This document shows positions 30,400 through 58,903 of a stretch of 64,000 nucleotides of DNA, piece by piece. The number at the start of each line of letters is the position of its first letter. Position 1 is the stretch's first letter. The stretch is from Seison nebaliae (taxonomy: Eukaryota), in assembly GCA_023231475.1 (NCBI GenBank), contig JALJEE010001644.1, positions 1-64,000 of the forward strand, read 5' to 3'. A program made the position numbers and the translations under genes. The notes beneath the pieces are model-generated. The model had not been told where the DNA came from. It did no database searches and was given only the letters and a program-made list of their open reading frames with translations.

Positions 30400-33300
30400 T
30401 TAACATAAAGTCATATCGATTTGATGACTGATCGGTAATGATTCGTAACTAGATAAATTCACGATAGATTCATTTGGTTTTGCATTCACGTTTGTTGGTG
30501 GTTCAATTCTAATAAATTCATCAGTCATTTCAGTAAAATGAGAAATAAATGATTAACCGATAAACTGCTCGAGTTGCATTTACTCTCATTGTTGTCGATT
30601 GTGAATTTTGTGATTTGAAAAATCGATTGTCATCCCCTTTTTGACAGGAGCATAAAGTAGTCGAATTATCTGATGTGATAGAAAAGGGAGTTCCAATGAA
30701 TAATTGATTCTCATTCGAGAAATCGGAAAGAGAAGAAATGAAGGAATTCTGTTTCTTATAATATTCTCGAAGGATTCTGGGCGATGCCATTTTAATATGA
30801 TTCCTTCTGGATCGTTTCCTCCGTTTAAACATTTTTGATTGTTTCTTCTTTTTATTTCGTCTTATCTCTCTCAATCTGTTACGATTGTTGTTGTTATTTT
30901 GATTTAAATTGAAATTATATGGAGAAATGGTGACACCAGTTGAAATGGAAGAAGATAAAGATGAAGGAGAAAAAGAAGAAGAAGGAGAAGATGTTGATTC
31001 AGATGATGATGAAGCAGTGAATGAATCTAAATAAATTGGAATTATTAAGAGAACTTAAATATATTTCAATAATTTTAACCGATTGTTCGATGAAATCGAT
31101 AAGAGAAATAATTTGGAGTTTGTGGAAAATTGTTGAAATGGAATTGATTGTTATTTATTTGTGGCGATAATGGTGATAATGAATGTCTATTCACTTTTTT
31201 CGGTTTTGTTAAAATGAAATTACTATCTTTATCCAAATCAGTGACATATGTTGATTTTAATGTTGATTTCTCCATCGAACGATTTTTGATGTCAGAAGAG
31301 TTTAAATCGTACGAATTCCTTTGGAATTGAGGACGAGCGTTCGGATATTTATAGGAATTGTGTGGTCGATTCCTAATGGATGAGATTGGAATTTGCGTTC
31401 GATTATTCGTTTGTTCGTTGAACTCATCTAAATTCTCCATCATATTCAACGAAATCAATTCTCTGTAAGAATATGGTTGATGGTTGTTCTGACGGTTTTC
31501 TACCATCTGATCATTCACATCAAACTGAGTGAATTGATTGAGAGAAATTGATGGTGTGAATGAAGAACATTTAGACGGAGTTGAATTAGATCGTCGTCGA
31601 GTAAAATGTCGTTGAATAATGGGCGAATTAATTAATTCAGACGAAGACGCTCCACTAATAAAGGGAGGTCGAGTTGATGATATGGAATGTCGCCATTTGG
31701 GAAGTAATTTAGATTTTTGTAAATTTTCACGGAAGAAATTATCAACTGATGATGATTTGAATGAAATTGAATGATCTGATGATTTCCTTTGACAATATCG
31801 ATCATCTCTAATATTTCTCATGAGAACATGATCGATAATTGAATGCTCCTGATTGGCTTCAATGGATTTTTCAGCTTTTTTAAAACTTCGCATCTTTCGA
31901 CATTTCACTCTCAAATAACTATTTCTCTTGATATAATGTCTCAATTGTGTGACGAAGATAATGCTCAACATGATGATAATAAGCAGAATAATTATAATGA
32001 TCCACCATTTCCTGGTAAGCACTAAATGGGATGAAGAATTGGCTGTGAAATTTTTGTTAGATAAATTCTCTTTTTTTATTAAGAAGGCTGTTTGATTGAG
32101 ATAATCATTCATCAATTTCCATCGATAACGATTCGTTCCGATACGACGTGAAGGAATAAATGGGAAACTGGTAATGGAATCATAATTATTTGTTATTATT
32201 GTTGGGGTGGTGGTGGTGATGGGAGATGTTAATGGAAAAGAAGAAAATAAGTTACTGTTCAATCGAATATAATCAACTAAATTAGTTGTTGTAATTCGTT
32301 CCGTTGAGAGTTGAAATATTGTTGTTGTTGTTGTTGTGGTATGTTCTGGATATTCCATCGATAATTCAATTGATTTTATGATTGTGGTAGTAGAAATGAT
32401 TCTCTTTCTAGTTGTTGTGATTTTTATTCTTGTTGTGGTAATTGGAATGGTTAAAGGTTTTTCAGTTTTTTCAAAATTAATTGTTGTTGTTGTTGTTGTT
32501 GTTGAGGATGGAAATATTGGATTGGAGGCTCGCATAAAATGTAACCAGTCGAGTGATAATAATGTTGTTCCAATGGAACTTGTAGTTGATGTGGACAAAG
32601 AGAATTTTGTATCAGAAAAAATTTGTCGATTTAATGAGGCAATTTTCGATAATGAAGATGATGGAATGGAAATTGAAGAATTTCCTTCTAGTCGTTTAAG
32701 GAACTCTTCCACACTTAGTTGCACGTCAAGGATCGTTTGCTGTTTATTGGGTGTGGTGTGTTGAATGCGAATGTTATTCCATTTATTAGTCAATTGTTGA
32801 TCATTTGCTCGATTGTGTAATTTGATTTGATTAACTTTCTTTCGATGTTTATTTGAAATCTTTCCAATCTTTCGATAAACTTTCTGCACATTCTCACACT
32901 GCTGCCCACTCAGTCGTGGAAATCGGTGAGAACATTCACATAATCTCCCATACCAGAACTTCCGGCAATAACTCGATAATTTCAATGTTAATCTTGATTT
33001 TCTTTGTTTCCCGATTAATTTGACTCGAAGTCTAATCACTTTGCGAATATCAGATAAACCTGGTGATATTCCATAAGCACGATGGAATGCATCTAAATGT
33101 TGGTAACGATTTTCTGATGATGCATATTCATAACTAGACGTCGGATATTCCAACCAAACATCAACAAAAACAACAATGGATCCCGGCCATTGTTTGAAGG
33201 GAAAATATAAAGAGGATAAAGGCAAATGTGAATTTTTCCTAGGGAAATTAATGAATAATTCATACTCATCATTCTCGTTCATATTAATCATTCGGAAATA

Positions 33301-33627
33301 CTGACGATTAGTAATATTTGATGGATCAAATGACTGATGGAAATATCCATAAGTACATTGAGAAATGGTAGTATCTCGATTAGCCAATTTCAATGGATTC
33401 AAACGTTTCTCCGTTTCGGATTGTGTGAGTGTCATAAGACAGAATTCAATGTGTAAATAACATGACGGTCTGATGATATTCCGTCGAAGAATCATCGTTC
33501 TATTGAGACAAGCTAATTCTTTTCTCTTCAATGAAAGTTTTTGAAATTCGATCTCAAATATACCTCTCATCATTGTCAATGAAATTAAGTGATATAAAAC
33601 GATAATAAACAAATATCGAAGTTGCAT
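30400..33627 (-). CDS. Divergent Delta/Serrate (Notch-ligand)-like type I membrane protein, 3 exons
   Basis: Signal peptide; MNNL-like motifs (GIFEIEF, CYLHIEFCL, CTYG, FPFKQWPGSIVVFVDVW); truncated DSL-like CRKFWYGRLC...SGQQC; Thr-rich stalk; TM WWIIIIILLIIIMLSIIFV; long cytoplasmic tail. Introns 31027-31079 and 30509-30557 join the 30530-30874 ORF. Confidence 0.7.
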
Positions 33628-36600
33628 TTCATTCAATCATTCATTTCATCAATCCATAAATTTCTTTTCAATTTCTCATTGAAATTTCTCTAATTATCTT
33701 AAAATCAAAATAAAAACTTGTATATTTTTTTTAATTCATCGAAAATCTTTGAAACTCGAAATATTAAAAATGATTTGATGAAATAAATCAGTTTAATTTC
33801 CATCAAATTATTTTTTCTGATCTCTTTAAATAAATGACTTACATAAATTTCAATAAGTGTAACAATTAGACGTTTGTTTTTTTTTACGAAGAACAAGGAG
33901 AAGATGATGGAATTGATAAGAGAGATCGAAAAAAAATTCTCATAAGATTGATAATGGAATCGAATGAATATGGTTTATTATCAAAAACGGAATATGAAAT
34001 GGATGAATAATTTATATTAAGAACAAATGATAATGAAGGTGATAAATAGTTAGAGGAGAAATGTAATCCTTTCGGATTCATCCGTTTTTTACTAAACAAT
34101 CGATGATATTTTGTTAGTTTTATTCTTCTCATTTATTCTCCTCTCAAATTTAAGGTAAACAATTCCAGTTAATATTATCCATGATTTAACTGTCAAGATC
34201 TCGAATTATCTCTCATTTCCATTCACAACTAATATTTGGGATTCTACTTCTTTTTCTGTAATGAACAATTGTTGCTTCCCGCCTACACGCTCTCATCACG
34301 ATTCATCCGTCGGGAAGTTGAGGAACATCAACGACAATTGTAAACAAAGTTACTCTAAGATGTACTCTCGTTACCGGTTTCAATGATTGTGATTTCCCTA
34401 AATCGTGTCATTTGGAGAGATCGTTTTGTGCGGAATTTTTCTCCTCTTCCGCATCATCAACAACAAACAACTCAATCTATTGATGGATATAACTCGAGTT
34501 GGATACATGAGGAAATTACTACACTTAATTGCTAAACGACGAATGATTCCTAATTCATATTTTATCCAGTAGGAAATAATCAATTTACTCTCATAACATC
34601 ATTCTTGCATCACAGAAGAACATTCTCCTTTTCGTTTACTTCGACAATTCTTTGAAGGGTTTGAAGTTGTTGAATGTGAAGAAATAGTTTAATGGGACAA
34701 GAATCCTGATTATTTTTTATCCTTATCAACATTCGACCATCGGAAACATATTCTATTAAATGAGCTTCTTATAATGTTGATACTAAAAAGAAAAAGAATC
34801 GAAGAAGAAGAAGAAGAAGATAGAATTAGATGAAGAGAGCTTCATTCGTTGAGCTTCATTCATTCATTTTCCATCGTAAGAGGATTATTCTTCATTTCTA
34901 TTTCTCTTGAATTCACTTACGGTAATGTACTTAAATTTGAATACATTATTTTACATGTCATAGCCATACTCCACATTACACCAAGAATTCTCTTATGACT
35001 CATCTAACTGCGTTAAGTCGAAAGATTGGATGGAACTATTCTTATAAAGAGTTCTCTTCTCTTATATATATGGAGGATTGGACTGCCAAGATTCTTTCTA
35101 TCTCGACAGCTACCTACAGTTCGAGCTAGCTCTCAGTTAGCCATCCATTCGTCGTGTTGAGAGATGTTCATGAAAGAAAGTGGAATGAATGTTTGATAAA
35201 TACATGTATATGAATAGATAGATGAGTTGAATAATAAGAGAAAAAATTCGATGAAATATTGAAATTAATGGAAATGTCGAATCTACTCGATCTGATCCAA
35301 CAACGCGTCGGAGATTGATGTTGTTCTTGTTCAAGAATAATCGATGCAACATTAAATGAATAAGTTTATTGCTCTAGTTTCTCCTAATTTTCTTATTGCC
35401 ACTACATGACGATGTAGTGAATTCTCTCATTCACTAACATCATAATCGTAGTATTTACTATTTTTAATATATTTCTAAATGACGAGATCTCATTCTTCCC
35501 TCCCAGTTGATATTCAATCGACATTTCTGTAAATAAATTCTTTCCATCATTCTATATTTATTGCAGTACTTCACACGTTCATCATTATCCAAATAGAGAA
35601 CACATAGTTCATACTCCACCTCTAATTAAAGGCATTAAAGGAAACGAACAACATATCCGTTACTTCCAATCGCCCATCAATCATTCAAATATTTCCTACT
35701 ATCTGTTTATTTAGCAATCGAACACTCTTGTAGCCTTCCCATAATCACATAGGATGTGGTCGATCGTTAATTATTGGAATAACTCTTCCATTCTTCCACT
35801 CAACTAATGACCATCATTATTTATCTCCGACTAAAAATATCATCACTTCTTTCATCAATTGGTTAATGAAAGTATCGTTTAATTCAATGTCTTTCAACTT
35901 CCATCGCGTTCAATCCGGAAAGAAATGATCATTTTTTTCATCAAAGTATATTATCAGGATCTTAACTGAAACTTTAAAGTTTTTTCCAAGTTCAAATTTT
36001 TTGAAAGTCCATGAAGATTAGATTATCAATTATATAAGATATAGATTAATGTTTAGGTAATATTCATCCAATTTCAATTTTAATTGATCAAATTTCTTCT
36101 TATTATTAATGTTTCTCTTGTTTCGGAATATCATTCATACAAATAAATTAGACTATTTAGAAATGTGAGAATATCGTCTAATTATTGTGTGAATAATAGT
36201 CATAATTAATTAAGTAAGTTTTCTCACTTATATGACCAGTTGTCATCTTCCTCAAAATATGGTAAATAAAAGTCGATAACAAAAACCGTAGAAAACCGTT
36301 GCATTAGAAAAAGAGAAGCTAAAATGAAAGTGATTTTGTGAAGGTATTTGGATAAATTGGTTTTCAGAAGAATCGGTAATTAATGAGAATAGCAATAATG
36401 ATGATAAAGTGAAGAATAATGAAAATAAATAATAGAATAAAATTCCATTGAATAATAGGAGTGCAATAGAAAAGAATGAAGCGACGACGTGAAATAGAAT
36501 GATGTATAATAAATGGAGAAGTATATAACCGAATTTTATAGGAAACAAAAATATTGATGATAAACATAATGGCTCAAAATTGCATATAATACATAGTATC

Positions 36601-39405: not shown

Positions 39406-43665
<4,260 letters not shown>

Positions 43666-50371: not shown

Positions 50372-51688
<1,317 letters not shown>

Positions 51689-52896
51689 GGGATTTTCTTC
51701 AAAGTTTTCCCCGGCCAAATATATTTTCAAAGAACACGAACGAATGATAACAAAAAAAAGATGCACAAAACTAATTTCTATTCAGCATTAACCAAAAATT
51801 ATTTTTTCAAAAAAAATATTATCTAGTCATGACAGAACAGTATCCATCATCGGTACCATCATATTTCCGTTCGAATGGAATTCTTCTCAAAACTTTTTTC
51901 CAAAGTGTTTGGGAGAGACACTGAATGAAGAGAAAAGTATTTTCTGTCTTATAATCTCATCACGTAATTTTTGAATGAATATGAGCAGTAAGAATCTCGC
52001 AATGTCAGAAACGTCACATCATAAGAATGACATCCCAAATCTCCTCCACAGTGAGACGAATTCGAATTATTTATTTTTATTCTCGTCAATCCATTAAAAC
52101 AATCTATTTTTCAATTTATTCATCTTCATTCATCATCATGGATTCTTGCAGATGTGATTGATTGACGGCTTCTTTAATTTTATTTATAATTAATTTATTT
52201 TCGTTCGTTTTACCGGAAACCATCTGACAATCCGTTCAAGTTTCCTCTTCACCTTTTCTCATTTTTCGATTGTACAATTCATTTCTGCTTCAACATTTCT
52301 TTGAATGATACAGAAATTTTCATGTCGACTGGAAATTACATTTGAATTCTTCTTTTCGCTTCTTTCCAATCCATCTTCATCAAGTTGACGACGATAAAAC
52401 TAATCGTCGAGTTATTATCAAAGACACCGACGTCATCTTCATGGAGGAATTGGAAGAAATATGATTCCATTTTTTCCCACTACTTCTACTACCACTACTT
52501 CTCCTTTTCACTACTTATTCTTCATTCATTGTATCGATTTCTTTTATTTACTCATGGAAATGAATCACATCCGATTTACATTCTAAACAAATTCAACCAA
52601 TTTCTATATTTATCAACAGTAGAAAAAAAGATTTACTGTTTCTGTTCATCATCGTTTCGATGTTCATTTGAATATCTATTGCTTCATCTATTCTACTTTA
52701 ATGAACAACGACAAATCATACAAATGACAATAACAAAAATAATTAATTTGTTCAGTTTTTTGTTTATTTTCTTTCAAAATTTATATAAAGAAATTTTTTC
52801 TTATAATCTTCTTATTCTAAATTATATTCTAATTAAAATTTGAAGAATATTCAAAGAATGACATAAGAAGATCAATAAATAATTTTTTTTAATAAT

Positions 52897-53709
52897 TTAT
52901 CCGGATGATATTCTAAATCGAGGACGTTTCGTTACTTTGTTCTTCGACCAGAAACCTTCATTCGTTCTTCTATATTGTTTCGGTTCGAGTAAATCACCAT
53001 TTCTAACTGCTTTCCATATTCCTCGAAGGGAACTTTTGGCAGCCGCTTCGGCAGCTAAATATGGTTTCTTAGCACAACCAGTTGGCATTCGTTTATAAGT
53101 AAATGCCTGACCTTGTTTCACCATGAGATAATTATATGGAATCGGAATACGTTTCTTATATTCATTCTTATCACCCGGAAACACTTCGGCTAATATTCGT
53201 CCATAAATATCACGACCACTTCCTTTCAGCATATTTCTTAAAATTACTACGTCTCCTCTATCTATCATTCTCCTTGAAAATTGAAAATTGAAATTAAAAA
53301 AACCGTTTAATAATAAAAAGGTGTCAAACCTCAAAGCAACTTTCGATCCTTCACCGTATGGTTTTTGCGCCATTTCTGGTGTGTCGATACAAGCAAATCT
53401 GATTATTCTCGTTTCCAAAGCATTACTGTAATCACGCACTTCAATCGTATCTCCATCTTTAACTCGAACGACTACCCATTTCTTATCTGTCGCTTTGGGT
53501 AATGGAGGGATGTATGCTAATAATGACAATAAGATTTTAAGTTTGGAACATAAAATTTAGAGAAAGACCAAACACTTTTTCTTTTTATAATTTCTATATT
53601 TTCGATACGGTTTTTTATGTTTTGAAATACGACCTCTGTCTTCATGTGATCGACAATCGACAAGAAGGAAAAAGAGGAAGAGGCTGAAGAAAACGAAAGA
53701 TAGTTTCAT
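52897..53709 (-). CDS. Secreted thermonuclease (staphylococcal/micrococcal nuclease family) of bacterial type, 3 exons
   Basis: Signal peptide MKLSFVFFSLFLFFLLVDC, basic linker, then VVRVKDGDTIEV...IRFACIDTPEMAQKPYG...RDIYGRILAEVF...MVKQGQAF...YLAAEAAAKSSLRGIW with the SNase catalytic residues intact. Introns 53517-53573 and 53273-53329, both 57 nt GTT..AG. Confidence 0.88.
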
Positions 53710-53922
53710 TTTTTAAAAAAAAATTCTCTTATGAAGAAACTGGATGGAAAAAATTCAATAAAATGATTTATTCTTCTAAATCATCTGAACTTTGAACTGC
53801 CTTTCTCAATTAAATGCAACCTTGTCAAGTCATATCAATGTCATTTTTACAGTTGAATTCGAAATGTTTCTCATTCACTTAAAATTTCTTTTTTTCTTTC
53901 ACCAATAATTCCCATTCCAATA

Positions 53923-54487
53923 TCAAACAATATTATTCGGATCCACTGGACGATAGGGTCGACTGACTGAAAAAAATGTATAATGAATTTGTGAAAAAAA
54001 AATTTAACATTCTCTTCCTGGAATATTGTACGCTAGAAAATAAATTAAAGTAATAATTAAAAAGATAAGAAAATATCTAACGATGAATTCCAGATGGTTT
54101 CACTAAAAAATAAAAATAATTATTAAAATAGATGAAAGATGAGTGGGATAAACCTTGTTTCAGCACGAAACAGTAAAGTATTCCAATTCCTATTAAGACA
54201 GTAGATATTATGATTGAAACAAGAATTCTTAATAAAATTTTAGAAGGTGATGCTTGTGGATATATTTTACGCGGTTCTGGTTTCTTCGATCTCTTCTGTA
54301 GGATTTCTAAACGCTTCAAAATTTTCCCTTGTTTAATTAGTCGTGTATTCTTAGGAACTTGTGCCATCAGCTTAGTTATTCTACCTCTCTTGAATAAAGG
54401 ATGATAGAAATTTAGTTTCTTAATATCTAAACATGAAGAAGGGATTGGAAGTAAATTGGAAAGAATTATTATTGGTATAATATCCAT
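53923..54487 (-). CDS. Orphan membrane protein with 21-nt and 24-nt micro-exons
   Basis: Hydrophobic N-terminus, basic middle, TM segment ILVSIIISTVLIGIGILYCFVL. Phase-1 GTT..AG introns 54103-54153, 54033-54081, 53967-54008. An alternative last acceptor 4 nt further on would move the stop to 53871. Confidence 0.6.
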
Positions 54488-54816
54488 TAATAATTAACGT
54501 TCAAAACCGAATTAATTAAAATTATAAGTTCAATTTTCTTTTCAGTTTTATATAACAAATTTTAAATTGTTAAATTATTTTACTTATTTTGGAGAAAATA
54601 TTTGATTTTTAAAATTGTACCATCAAATTATATCTATTAATATCAATAGAAATAAATCAAAAAATTAATTCATTATTCCAATTGTGGACTTAACAAGCTT
54701 ATGACGATTAAGCTTGAAATTTAATAATGAAATTCAGTTAAACATGTTTCTTATTTTACTTTAAGGAGTATTAAAATTCGGTAACTTTAGGAACATCAAA
54801 ATTCAATAGTGACATC

Positions 54817-55290
54817 ATGTCTGATTTGGATGACATTCCTGATTTGGAAGATCCTTATGAGAATAAAGAATCATTGTTCGATGAAGATGGTTTAAGAATA
54901 AAAAATGAAAATAAAAATTGTCTCAATCATGAAAAAGTATCGACAACAACGACAAAAACATCAAACGCATTAGATGAAGGTTTACTTATTCGTGAAATTC
55001 AGAATAAGAATAAAGAAGAAGAAAGTAAGAAACGATCGGAAATAGAGAACATGCAAAATAAATTATATTCATCCAACGAACAATTTTTTTCTCAAATTTT
55101 TCAAGATCCAGAAATGGTGGAAGCAATCGATTTATTCCAGAAGGATCCTGAATTGGCTAAGACTAAATATGGACGGAATGAAAAAATTACTCAAATGATG
55201 GTATCAGCAACGAAGTTGATGGGTTAGTACGATATTTCTTCTCACTGAAACTATTTCATCGTATTCGAAGGTAATGTTTTGTTCAAATGA
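54817..55290 (+). CDS. Small STI1/DP-domain-like protein, 2 exons
   Basis: MSDLDDIPDLED start; FQDPEMVEAIDLFQKDPELAKTKYGRNEKI resembles an STI1 (DP) motif. Intron 55223-55270 (GTT..AAG). Confidence 0.65.
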
Positions 55291-55380
55291 TGATGACGTC
55301 AAGAAAGGAAGAAAAAATTTAACAAAAAATTTTTGACTTCATAATTTTTTTTTATTATCTATTTCTTCAATTGAAAGAAA

Positions 55381-55974
55381 ATGAGAATAAATTTTTTTTC
55401 CAGAACTATTTTTCATTCAGTTTGTTCTCTCATCTTGATCGTTTATTATTTTTATCAACGTTTTACTTTTCAAAGACCATCGGATGGTTCAGTTAAAAGA
55501 TATACTATATTCAACGAATCTCATTGTCTATTGTTGGAATCGAAAGAATTAAATTTCATTCTCATTCATAACTCTTTCATTCCATTATCCCATCACTGCA
55601 ATGATTCCTACCAGAAATTTCAAAAGAAAAGTGAAATGACCAGAAAGGTTATCAGTTCTCATCAATTACTGTTGAAGACTATGAGGAATGGTTATTACAG
55701 TTTCAATTTCAATCAAAAAGTGAAAAGTGGAATGTTGAAATGTATAGGTCTTCAACAAATTTTCCTATGGAATAAAAACAAACAATTTCCTTATATCTTA
55801 AAGAATCAAAATGAATTCCAACAATTTTATTATTTTTTTAAATCACATAAAAATATCAAATACACCTTTCTTCCAAATTATCAAACATTCCGTATTAATA
55901 TGAGATTTCCATCAGCATTAATCCAATCGGCCGAATGGAAAATTACTGAACTTTGTAAATTGTTTGAACTTTAA
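55381..55974 (+). CDS. Orphan 197-aa protein with an N-terminal membrane anchor
   Basis: ATG-initiated ORF with hydrophobic IFHSVCSLILIVYYFY; no family recognised. Confidence 0.55.
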   Translation: MRINFFSRTIFHSVCSLILIVYYFYQRFTFQRPSDGSVKRYTIFNESHCLLLESKELNFILIHNSFIPLSHHCNDSYQKFQKKSEMTRKVISSHQLLLKTMRNGYYSFNFNQKVKSGMLKCIGLQQIFLWNKNKQFPYILKNQNEFQQFYYFFKSHKNIKYTFLPNYQTFRINMRFPSALIQSAEWKITELCKLFEL

Positions 55975-57073
55975 TATTTAATTTGATCTCATTTTAATTT
56001 AAGAATTATTCATATTTTTAATTAAACTAATTTTATTATATTTCACTGTTTCATTTCAAAAATTTCCGTTCTATTCGATTATTTCTATTCGGTTAATTTA
56101 ATTTGTTATTAAAGAAATTGGAAATTATTGTGTCTTTTGAAATTGTATAATAGTTATAATTGTAATTATTTGTATATCGAGAGAAAGCATATTTTCAGAG
56201 AGAATTAATGTTACAGACTTCTTACATTCATTGGCAGTAAAGTCCAAAAATGTCTAATGAAAGAATAACAAACATTTTTTGAAGAGAATATGTATGTATA
56301 CCATCGAATAATATGATTGGTGTATATGATTATACATACCATTTTCGATTATATAATAATATACACATACATAACAGAATTAGTGTTGTATACAAGTGGA
56401 GAGACAAAAATTTACTCGTCTAATTCGCTAGATTTGAAGTTGGGTATGTGGTGAGGAAGAATAATTATCTCTCTACTCCTGAACATTTTAGTCAAATAGA
56501 ATGATGCTATTGAAGGTCAAGGAAATTTTTTTTGAAAAATTTTTTATTGTTCTCTTTTAAATTCATGTTCAATTTTTAAATAGTTCTCCAAATTTTCTTA
56601 ATGTGAAAAAGGAGAAAAGATGATGGAAGAAAACAGATAAGTAATTTGACCATATGGAAATAAAGTTGTTCATGTAAATATGGAATTTCACTTTAGATTA
56701 TAGGATTGTCAAGGATATATATTTAGTTTACAGCAATTTCCATGAAAATGGTAGTCAATAGTATATTGCGATAGTAAATACGGAAACGAATATTTTAGTG
56801 ATGATGAAAAAATTTCCGGTGAAATATAGAAATTATCATGAACAGATAGCGACAAGAATAGGGAACAGATCGATTACGTGTTACTCCCCAATACTTTCTT
56901 CTTCTCTCATTACCGCTTGAAATAAGATATTTCTCTCATTTTTCTGTCTACATTTATCTCCCAATCCATTTTTTAACATTTGCACTTCATTTCGATCTTC
57001 CAATTTTTTATCTCTCATTCATTTTTCGATACGAATAGTCTTTCTTTTCTCTTGTTGGAGATTTAGTTCCATC

Positions 57074-58903
57074 ATGCTCTCCATTTGCAAACAATCAAGT
57101 TATTTCTATTTATTATTCGGTTTGATGAATTTTATTTGTTCATTAAAGTAAGACCATTCAGTGCTACCGCTTGTTTAGCGAGTAAAAATGAACCATCATC
57201 TCCAATAATTAAGACGAAAATTCCCGGCCCACAATCCTTGAAATTACGAGAAGGATTATCAGATATTTGTGTTAGAATTGTCTTTTACGATCGATAATCA
57301 TTCCATTCCAGAGTACACGTACTCCACATTTCTTTGTTGATTATAAAAAATCGTTAGGGAATTATATCGCCGATGCAGATGGAAATATGTTATTGGATAC
57401 GTTCTGTAACATTTCAACAGTTCCGCTGGGTTACAATAATCCCGCCATCATAAAATCCGTTCTGGATCCAGCAAATTTGGTTTTAATTATAAAATTTAGA
57501 AATTTCTTATCTTTTTCTTTTATTTTAGCATTTATTTGCTAATCGACCATCATTAGCAGTTAATCCACCGAAAGATTATGTTGACTTAATGAACAGTACA
57601 TTATTGAAAGTTTTTCTTTACTACTAATAATTAAATTTTCAATTCATAAGATCGCCCCAAAAGGTTTGAGCAATGTCCAACCAATGATGTGTGGTTCGTG
57701 TTCGAATGAAAACGGATTGAAACAAATCTTCATCACTCATATGAGAAAACGGAGAAATGGTAAAACACCAACAAACGAAGAAATGAAATCCGCTTTATAT
57801 TCCCAATCACCAGGAACGCCAGAATTATCTGTTATCACTTTCAATCATGGATTTCATGGACGAACAATGGGACTCTTAAGTTGCTCACATTCGAAAGCTA
57901 TTCACAAATTAGATATACCTGGATTCCAATGGCCGGTTTGCGAGTTTCCAATTTACAAATATCCTTTGGAGAAGAATGTGTCGTATAATGAAGAACAAGA
58001 TGCGAAGTGTTTGAAACAATTACGTGAATTGTTAAAGGAGAATTGTGAGAAGAATGAAGGAGTAGCAGCAATTTTAGTTGAATCGATTCAATCTGAAGGT
58101 GGTGATAATTTCGGTTCACCCTCATTCTTTAGAAATGTACAAAAACTATCAAAAGAAGTTCACTAAAACTCGTTTTGATATTAAATTCAAAATTTTCTTA
58201 AACAGTTTAATGTTCCGTTAATGTTTGACGAAGTACAATCTGGTGGTGGTAACACCGGAACATGGTGGGCACATGAAACGTTCGATTTGCCCGAACCGCC
58301 GGAAATGGTGTCTTTCGGTAAGAAAATGTTAATTGCTGGTTATTATTGTAAACCGGAATTTATGGATATTGAAGTTAATTTGAATATAAGTTTCTTTTAT
58401 TTTCCAAATTACAATTTAGGCATTCCGTATTCTCAATACTTGGATGGGCGAACCAAGTAAGATGTTAATGTTGAAGAATGTGATGGAAGAAGTCGAAGAC
58501 AAGAAAATTTTAGATCAAGTCCAAAAATCAGGTTCCATTCACTTAACATAGAAAACGACTTCATTAAAATATTTATTTATTAAAGGCAAATTATTATTAG
58601 ATTCTCTAAGTGATCTATGTGTAAAGTATTCAAAAATTATCAATTCAGCTCGAGGACTGGGCACATTCTGTGCAATTTCGTGTCCTTCCACTGAAATCCG
58701 TAACGAATTGTGCGAGAGAACTAGAAATCTTGGTGAGAAATATTTGAAATTTTTTTCTTATTTAATTATTTTTATTTTAAGGTGTCAATGTTGGTGGTTG
58801 TGGTGATTTATCTATTCGATTTCGTCCGTCACTCACGTTCACTGAGGATCATGTAAAAATTACAATAAAGATGTTGGACAAAGCATTACGTCAAATGAAA
58901 TGA
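57074..58903 (+). CDS. ABAT: 4-aminobutyrate aminotransferase (GABA-T), mitochondrial, 9 exons
   Basis: EPSSPIIKTKIPGPQS, FVDYKKSLGNYIADADGN, PLGYNNP, MMCGSCSNENG, GFHGRTMG, SKAIHKLDIP, IQSEGGDN, DEVQSGGG, SFGKK (PLP lysine), NTWMGEPSK, RGLGTF, IRFRPSL. Eight introns of 41-54 nt: seven GTT, one GTGAGA (58733-58781). Confidence 0.95.

Follow-up and report, generated by a model that had tools for sequence, protein, structure and literature searches.

The chemistry of the nuclease of Staphylococcus aureus is established, being a Ca2+-dependent cleavage of phosphodiester bonds in DNA and RNA. The usual animal member of its family (SNase) is the cytosolic Tudor-SN, and fungi have a eukaryotic single-domain SNase with the full catalytic set, LCL3. 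Catalytically complete single-domain SNases have been described from bacteria, where they are small, heat-stable, Ca2+-dependent and secreted, and from plants, where the eukaryotic single-domain enzymes CAN1 and CAN2 are Ca2+-dependent, have the full catalytic set, are myristoylated and palmitoylated and have an insert of ~55 residues in the domain (PMC3505149). Tudor-SN has been described as a series of tandem SN repeats with a Tudor domain (PMC2441809). Bacterial enzymes are also known to have been kept in animals, including foreign genes of bdelloid rotifers, the DNA ligase of Adineta and the insect DNase cdtB (PMC3499245, PMC10665377, 10.1101/544197). The gene described here, from Seison nebaliae, a seisonid rotifer that lives on Nebalia (PMC8351084), is an addition to two known kinds, the bacteria-to-animal enzyme transfers and the SNase family, and its enzyme chemistry is textbook; it differs from the bdelloid, Adineta and cdtB cases in coming from another enzyme family. 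Seison nebaliae is reported to be strictly sexual and to have a reduced gene set from which many core genes have been lost (PMC8351084; PMC12256650), and an intron-bearing, predicted secreted SNase in such a sexual, gene-poor seisonid would mean that, among rotifers, bdelloids are not alone in capturing foreign genes.

The nuclease gene is on the minus strand of the window (the whole stretch of 64,000 nucleotides that was analyzed) at positions 53709-52897, with a start ATG at 53709 and a TAA stop that ends at 52897, and has three exons (136, 187, and 376 nt) and two introns of 57 nt. Exon 1 (53574..53709), which equals that of the NCBI model, encodes residues 1-45, comprising a hydrophobic leader and a Lys/Arg/His-rich segment; exon 2 (53330..53516) encodes the N-terminal half of the SNase domain; and exon 3 (52897..53272) encodes the C-terminal half of the domain, a basic tail and the stop. 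An in-frame stop within intron 1 (53517..53573; GTTTGG..TAG, phase 1, 75% AT) forces some intron there, and four splice options in this region would keep the frame. Intron 2 (53273..53329; GTTTGA..AAG, phase 2 in codon R108, 79% AT) is open in frame, which is not unusual, as 32% of its 5000 shuffles are likewise open. Its removal is supported by the lack of a counterpart to its 19 codons in 34 aligned relatives and by better PDB matches once it is spliced out: a PDB sequence search with intron 2 retained gave no matches at E<=0.001, whereas the best match of the spliced protein had E=3.9e-5. A further sequence search with intron 2 retained returned only the gene's own record (one of 130 candidates). 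Both splice sites are predictions from genomic DNA. The two 57-nt GTT..AG introns that had been proposed in the initial annotation of this minus-strand gene were both recovered, and the spliced product of 232 residues is identical to the NCBI protein SNEBB_008204 of S. nebaliae (model P0002).

The protein, with its own start and stop, contains a single SNase domain (PF00565, E=9e-10, 39.4 bits vs. a cut-off of 21, obtained with a query that had intron 2 in frame). In having one OB-fold domain, a full D/D/R/D/E/R set and an N-terminal leader it resembles the staphylococcal nuclease/thermonuclease family (S. aureus Nuc and the YncB type of B. subtilis). By alignment to PDB chains, the DGDT motif was placed at residues 66-69 (53446..53457), where D66 and D68 are part of a Ca2+ site by homology and D66, G67, and D68 are invariant across 35 aligned sequences. 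The same alignment placed the motif R85..C88.D90.P.E93 at 53374..53400; it includes the first of two cysteines typical of a subfamily, and its residues 89-93 (IDTPE) align with the S. aureus nuclease, as does the DIYGR motif (residues 129-133, with R133; 53197..53211). All six catalytic positions (D66, D68, R85, D90, E93, and R133) align with the PDB thermonuclease and are invariant in the 35 rows, and we take their S. aureus equivalents to be D19/D21 for D66/D68, R35/D40/E43 for R85/D90/E93 and R87 for R133. The intact catalytic set in one SNase domain, which had previously been read from the letters, was therefore confirmed by both Pfam and the PDB alignment. The second subfamily cysteine, C174 (53074..53076), was recognized from its co-occurrence with C88: among 401 scored domains (of 465) both cysteines were present in 280, the first only in one, the second only in 18 and neither in 102, although related sequences share traits and these counts are not independent. 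A disulfide between C88 and C174 is likely from this pattern.

A structure model with a mean pLDDT of 83.5, confident over the domain, had staphylococcal nuclease as its best Foldseek match (E=3e-10, TM 0.83), and structural comparison to SNase gave a Z score of 16.1 and an rmsd of 2.2 over 130 aligned residues, consisting of an OB-fold barrel and three helices. Tudor-SN (SND1) shares the SN fold, with Z scores of 13.4-15.1 in the same comparison and an identity of 16-18%, and no Tudor-SN was found among the 24 PDB sequence matches at E<=1; together with the single domain and the full catalytic set, these values bear out the earlier view that the protein is not of the animal Tudor-SN type. The equivalog cut-offs of NCBIfam were missed, with 30 of 250 bits for NucI and 35.5 of 180 bits for EcnA. 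Relative to the S. aureus nuclease, with which it has 22-24% identity, the Seison protein is the product of a nuclear animal gene with two introns and has the Cys pair, basic flanks and loop insertions near residues 121-127 and 140-153. The flanks are very basic, as had been noted from the sequence: residues 21-46 have a pI of 10.6 (12 of 26 residues K/R) and residues 191-232 a pI of 11.6 (12 of 42 K/R). Residues 1-19 (53653..53709) are a predicted signal peptide based on hydropathy (MK followed by an h-region at residues 3-17), with a helix at residues 4-17 in the model. Cleavage after C19 is possible, and the hydrophobic residues 3-17 may alternatively represent an uncleaved membrane anchor.

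The gene is embedded between animal genes. On one side is a G-protein alpha subunit (50372..51688, plus strand) with five GTT..AG introns of 46-50 nt, and on the other an open reading frame (54775..55227, plus strand) with a weak match to the STI1/HOP DP domain, below the Pfam cut-off; other Pfam-matched neighbors in the window are an Snf7 protein and a class III aminotransferase. We compared contigs assembled from the reads of four runs representing two samples and two studies, three of the runs being from one sample. The nuclease was linked to the STI1-like gene in all four runs and to the G-alpha gene in one (the X1 contig, 50580-53185), the contig from the second study, X2, spans 52778-56000, and the bridging contigs from the two studies had no differences and a flat depth. 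The third-position GC content of the nuclease (0.28) is close to that of host open reading frames (0.31), and the loci of 15 bacterial matches have values of 0.34-0.87. The twelve introns of two neighboring genes are 41-54 nt in length, 11 of them with GTT donors and one with GTTTGG as in intron 1, so that the 57-nt nuclease introns exceed all twelve in length and their donors fit. The host 5' splice consensus is itself odd, as 11 of the 12 introns in the genes at 50372-51688 and 57100-58903 start with GTT and not GTA or GTG.

What can be said for a contaminant or chimeric assembly is that the evidence consists of short-read contigs, none of which covers the entire 6.5 kb, and that three of the four runs are from one sample which may be the source of the assembly. 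Against it are the predicted spliceosomal introns, the host-like GC3, the X2 bridging contig, the flat depth of the contigs, and a second, diverged copy whose contigs have the depth of diverged G-alpha contigs. We consider this explanation extremely improbable and all but refuted, in agreement with the initial annotation, which had disfavored contamination because of the introns. As the contigs join the nuclease to animal neighbors at flat depth, its GC3 is host-like and a second copy is conserved, it is almost certainly a real host gene.

The second copy was recognized from an X3 contig of low depth, which over 52893-53093 has 31 differences and no gaps in 201 nt relative to the 3' part of the nuclease, and from a diverged X2 contig with seven differences in 40 nt, also in the 3' part of the gene. 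The diverged nuclease contigs, which come from both studies, match the diverged G-alpha contigs in their low depth, and the reported existence of two lineages within S. nebaliae (PMC8351084) would explain them. For 18 of the 31 differences (the 13 near contig ends were left out) we obtained a dN/dS of 0.14 over 46 codons, with 11 synonymous and seven non-synonymous changes (Fisher p=1e-4), a value that pertains to the non-catalytic third of the protein and to one contig of depth below 5 which may contain errors. Judged by these substitutions, the second copy is under purifying selection. A 30-nt AT-rich stretch (52778..52807), 90-120 nt past the nuclease stop, is common to the main and diverged contigs, and the letters separating it from the gene differ between them (85 vs. 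281); it is possibly an element of the 3' UTR.

A search of 1.84 billion representative sequences returned 1949 matches at E<=0.001, the best of which, other than the protein itself, scored 76.5 bits at 41% identity; at 1e-30 the protein matched only itself. The top-scoring relatives are bacterial, mostly cyanobacterial, with ~40-47% identity over the domain. Two of the best 10 clusters have an organism name, both Synechococcaceae; 74 of the 80 genome loci among the matches listed are titled Cyanobacteriota, a count biased by the search patterns; the best plasmid matches are from Synechococcus elongatus and Nostoc; and the Atlas neighbors of the nuclease are bacterial clusters. Both cysteines and the motifs Q.P.G and Y....C....Y..AE..A...G.W are held in common with the cyanobacteria-rich R-L-A-C-I-D-A-P-E subfamily (Synechococcus, Cyanobium, Nostoc), in which V-N-L and A-F-V/A-Y stand where Seison has Y-N-Y and A-F-T-Y. 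Further differences of Seison from that subfamily are a PG loop and the lack of an excalibur domain. Relatives also occur in viral contigs, including metagenome-assembled genomes (MAGs) of giant viruses, in 73 of 600 candidate stretches, mostly at 25-36% identity. Some giant-virus MAG (GVMAG) contigs, e.g., L001 and L012, encode distant SNases, which the trees separate from those of rotifers. A phage donor was considered and rejected, as one of 50,697 records matched, at 52 bits.

In all four trees the Seison nuclease was nested among bacterial rows. The backbone of these trees is weak, being based on 144-148 columns with 21 of 43 forks open in the careful tree; the trees of 160 and 93 rows were quick searches. 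They were built without fungal LCL3, plant CAN and Tudor-SN sequences, most rows are without an organism name, and L112 (which failed the profile search) and L103 (which had no DGD motif in its frame) were left out. The sister of the Seison nuclease is a pair of metagenome proteins, P0145 and P0156, encoded on contigs of 120 kb and 452 kb, with SH values of 87 and 88 from the quick searches and 98/94 in the careful tree, where the bootstrap had not fully settled. Of 62 residues that are rare elsewhere and present in Seison, P0145 shares 13 and P0156 12, and other rows share 3.1 +/- 2.1 with a maximum of 9, which argues against long-branch attraction alone as the cause of the grouping. Both proteins also have the Y-N-Y, A-F-T-Y and the PG loop of Seison; both are without a leader and without the two cysteines, and have a hydrophobic C-terminal segment. 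Together with P0196, which is likewise encoded on a large metagenome contig, they make up a set of leaderless, tail-anchored SNases that are the nearest kin of the Seison gene. For P0145 and P0156, all Atlas matches were under 0.9 and viral and plasmid matches were distant; at E<=1e-15, a set of 401 genomes from one phylum gave no match, whereas five of 401 from the cyanobacterial phylum matched, all at 31-39% identity. When the pair was removed from the tree, Seison grouped loosely with picocyanobacteria (91/84). The cyanobacterial-type resemblance suggested in the initial annotation holds; as the sister group is P0145 and P0156 and not cyanobacteria, the resemblance does not show the donor to have been a cyanobacterium.

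We are confident that the gene is of bacterial origin, short of certainty. The competing possibility of no direct bacterial transfer, whether as a single-domain SNase of old eukaryotic descent that most animals have lost or as a gene acquired via an alga, protist or giant virus, could draw on the eukaryote-looking relatives P0035, P0075, P0089, P0090, and P0038, on the viral and giant-virus relatives described above, and on approximately unbiased (AU) tests of hand-chosen subsets of 46 and 38 of the 93 rows (the smaller one omits eight long or distant rows, P0145 and P0156 among them), in which uniting all the eukaryote-like rows in one clade was not rejected (p=0.055 and 0.091). In the free trees, however, the eukaryote-like rows are scattered among bacteria, at three or four points, the viral matches are weak and group apart, and the hallmarks of plant CAN, Gly2 myristoylation and the insert of ~55 residues, are absent from Seison, which starts MKL and has 15 residues separating T69 from R85. 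We regard this indirect route as improbable. P0035, P0066, P0075, P0089, and P0090 form a separate clade of eukaryote-looking SNases with the Cys pair, in most of which a leader is combined with a hydrophobic segment at the C terminus; this clade may go back to a capture by algae or protists.

Genes of this type are not confined to the Seison lineage. A profile search identified a similar nuclease in the rotifer Brachionus plicatilis, RNA18301.1 (P0203), and five further relatives, which with P0064 and P0160 form a clade of eight members (SH 100; 100/99 for six members). The seven members other than RNA18301.1, all encoded on contigs 0.9-1.4 kb long, are assumed to be from rotifers. Members of this group bear leaders and basic tails, and the complete ones have the Cys pair. 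RNA18301.1 is like the Seison protein in its leader, single SNase domain and basic tail, and unlike it in its clade and in a missing R..D..E segment; the group has ~31-37% identity to Seison and is placed elsewhere in the tree. From the public RNA18301.1 model ~30 residues are missing, among them the catalytic R, D, and E, and an overlooked exon is the likely cause; the column where its alignment picks up again is that of Seison R108, in whose codon intron 2 lies. This coincidence, noticed after the fact, may represent a shared intron or chance. A metagenome scan with an alignment of the Brachionus group found 63 loci from 178 stretches, every one of them distant (mostly at 23-38% identity) and none of that group.

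The Brachionus homolog makes one old gain vs. several a question that can be tested through intron position. Under one ancient transfer into the stem of Syndermata, the Seison and Brachionus genes would be fast-diverged orthologs, lost or not detected in bdelloids and acanthocephalans, and the enzyme would work in the same way. Both proteins have the Cys pair, a leader and a basic tail, no other named animal occurs in the 120 rows listed (12 have an organism name: two rotifers, eight cyanobacteria and two Cetobacterium), and the point at which RNA18301.1 resumes would fit an inherited intron. In addition, a clade of Seison, P0145/P0156 and the Brachionus group was not rejected by the AU test (p=0.154). 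Set against this, Seison and the Brachionus group alone were marginally rejected as a clade (p=0.039 and 0.046), the Brachionus group shares 0-5 of the 62 rare Seison residues, compared with 3.1 +/- 2.1 for unrelated rows, pairwise scores of Seison to this group are 16-60 bits vs. 75-81 for the best bacterial rows, and there is no named bdelloid among the 120 rows listed. We therefore find a single ancient transfer rather unlikely, and lean toward the Seison gene having been gained separately from that of Brachionus. We put forward more tentatively, as a reading on the doubtful side of even, that two or more captures of bacterial Ca2+-dependent thermonucleases took place in rotifers and that each enzyme was rebuilt alike with a eukaryotic leader, disulfide, polybasic flanks and introns. 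It is about as tentative that the two sources were a lineage of the P0145/P0156 kind for Seison and one near the cyanobacteria for the Brachionus group. If true, such repeated capture would be convergent and would define a class of secreted animal nucleases that is so far undescribed; under this reading the enzyme of Seison, with its loss of many core genes, may act on the biofilm of the host surface or on extracellular traps.

Taken as a whole, it is reasonably probable that the Seison protein is a nuclease transferred from bacteria, secreted and active; of the separate parts, activity is highly probable, and secretion is only a little less so. The leader would route the protein through the endoplasmic reticulum and out of the cell, and C88 and C174 would form a disulfide. 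D68 and D90 would hold Ca2+, and R85, R133, and E93 would hydrolyze phosphodiester bonds as in the S. aureus nuclease. The basic flanks might grip nucleic acid or anionic surfaces, the Ca2+ and pH of seawater should be suitable for the enzyme, and the nucleic acid degraded could be that of food or biofilm. We marginally favor this digestive role.

S. aureus deploys its nuclease against extracellular traps. A gene of the same bacterial origin could instead be directed at the host, with a product that is released onto Nebalia, where it would cut wound clots or the extracellular traps of haemocytes, or that enters host cells by means of a basic segment like a nuclear localization signal. The segment KHKKPYRKYRNYKKKK does resemble an import or cell-entry signal, an inference from sequence. 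Seisonids are restricted to leptostracans, and haemolymph may be part of the diet of some; they are described as probably commensals that share the food of the host (PMC8351084). Moreover, free-living Brachionus and its relatives have the same protein build with basic flanks, for which reason trap evasion is a poorer fit than the digestion of food or biofilm nucleic acid, and we judge a host-directed role unlikely.

In the open full-text literature we found no paper on transfer of a thermonuclease-type gene to rotifers or other animals, and the terms "HGT" and "nuclease" are absent from the main text of PMC8351084 and PMC12256650. The foreign-gene lists in the supplements of rotifer genome papers may already contain these nuclease genes.

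Several other features of the window were observed. Just upstream of the nuclease on the minus strand (~53930-54484) is an orphan open reading frame that runs for 138 residues between stops. Its central part is basic, it includes a hydrophobic segment, it has no Pfam match, and it is likely spliced. At 55375-55974 on the plus strand, a frame of 199 residues, likewise unmatched in Pfam, has a hydrophobic stretch at its N terminus. Finally, there are very long single-exon frames in what is an intron-rich genome: 2358-8369 (minus strand, 2003 residues), 31075-33636 (plus strand, 853 residues) and 39406-43665 (plus strand, 1419 residues), which by eye we take to encode a low-complexity protein, a Delta/DSL-like membrane protein and a PKN-like kinase, respectively.
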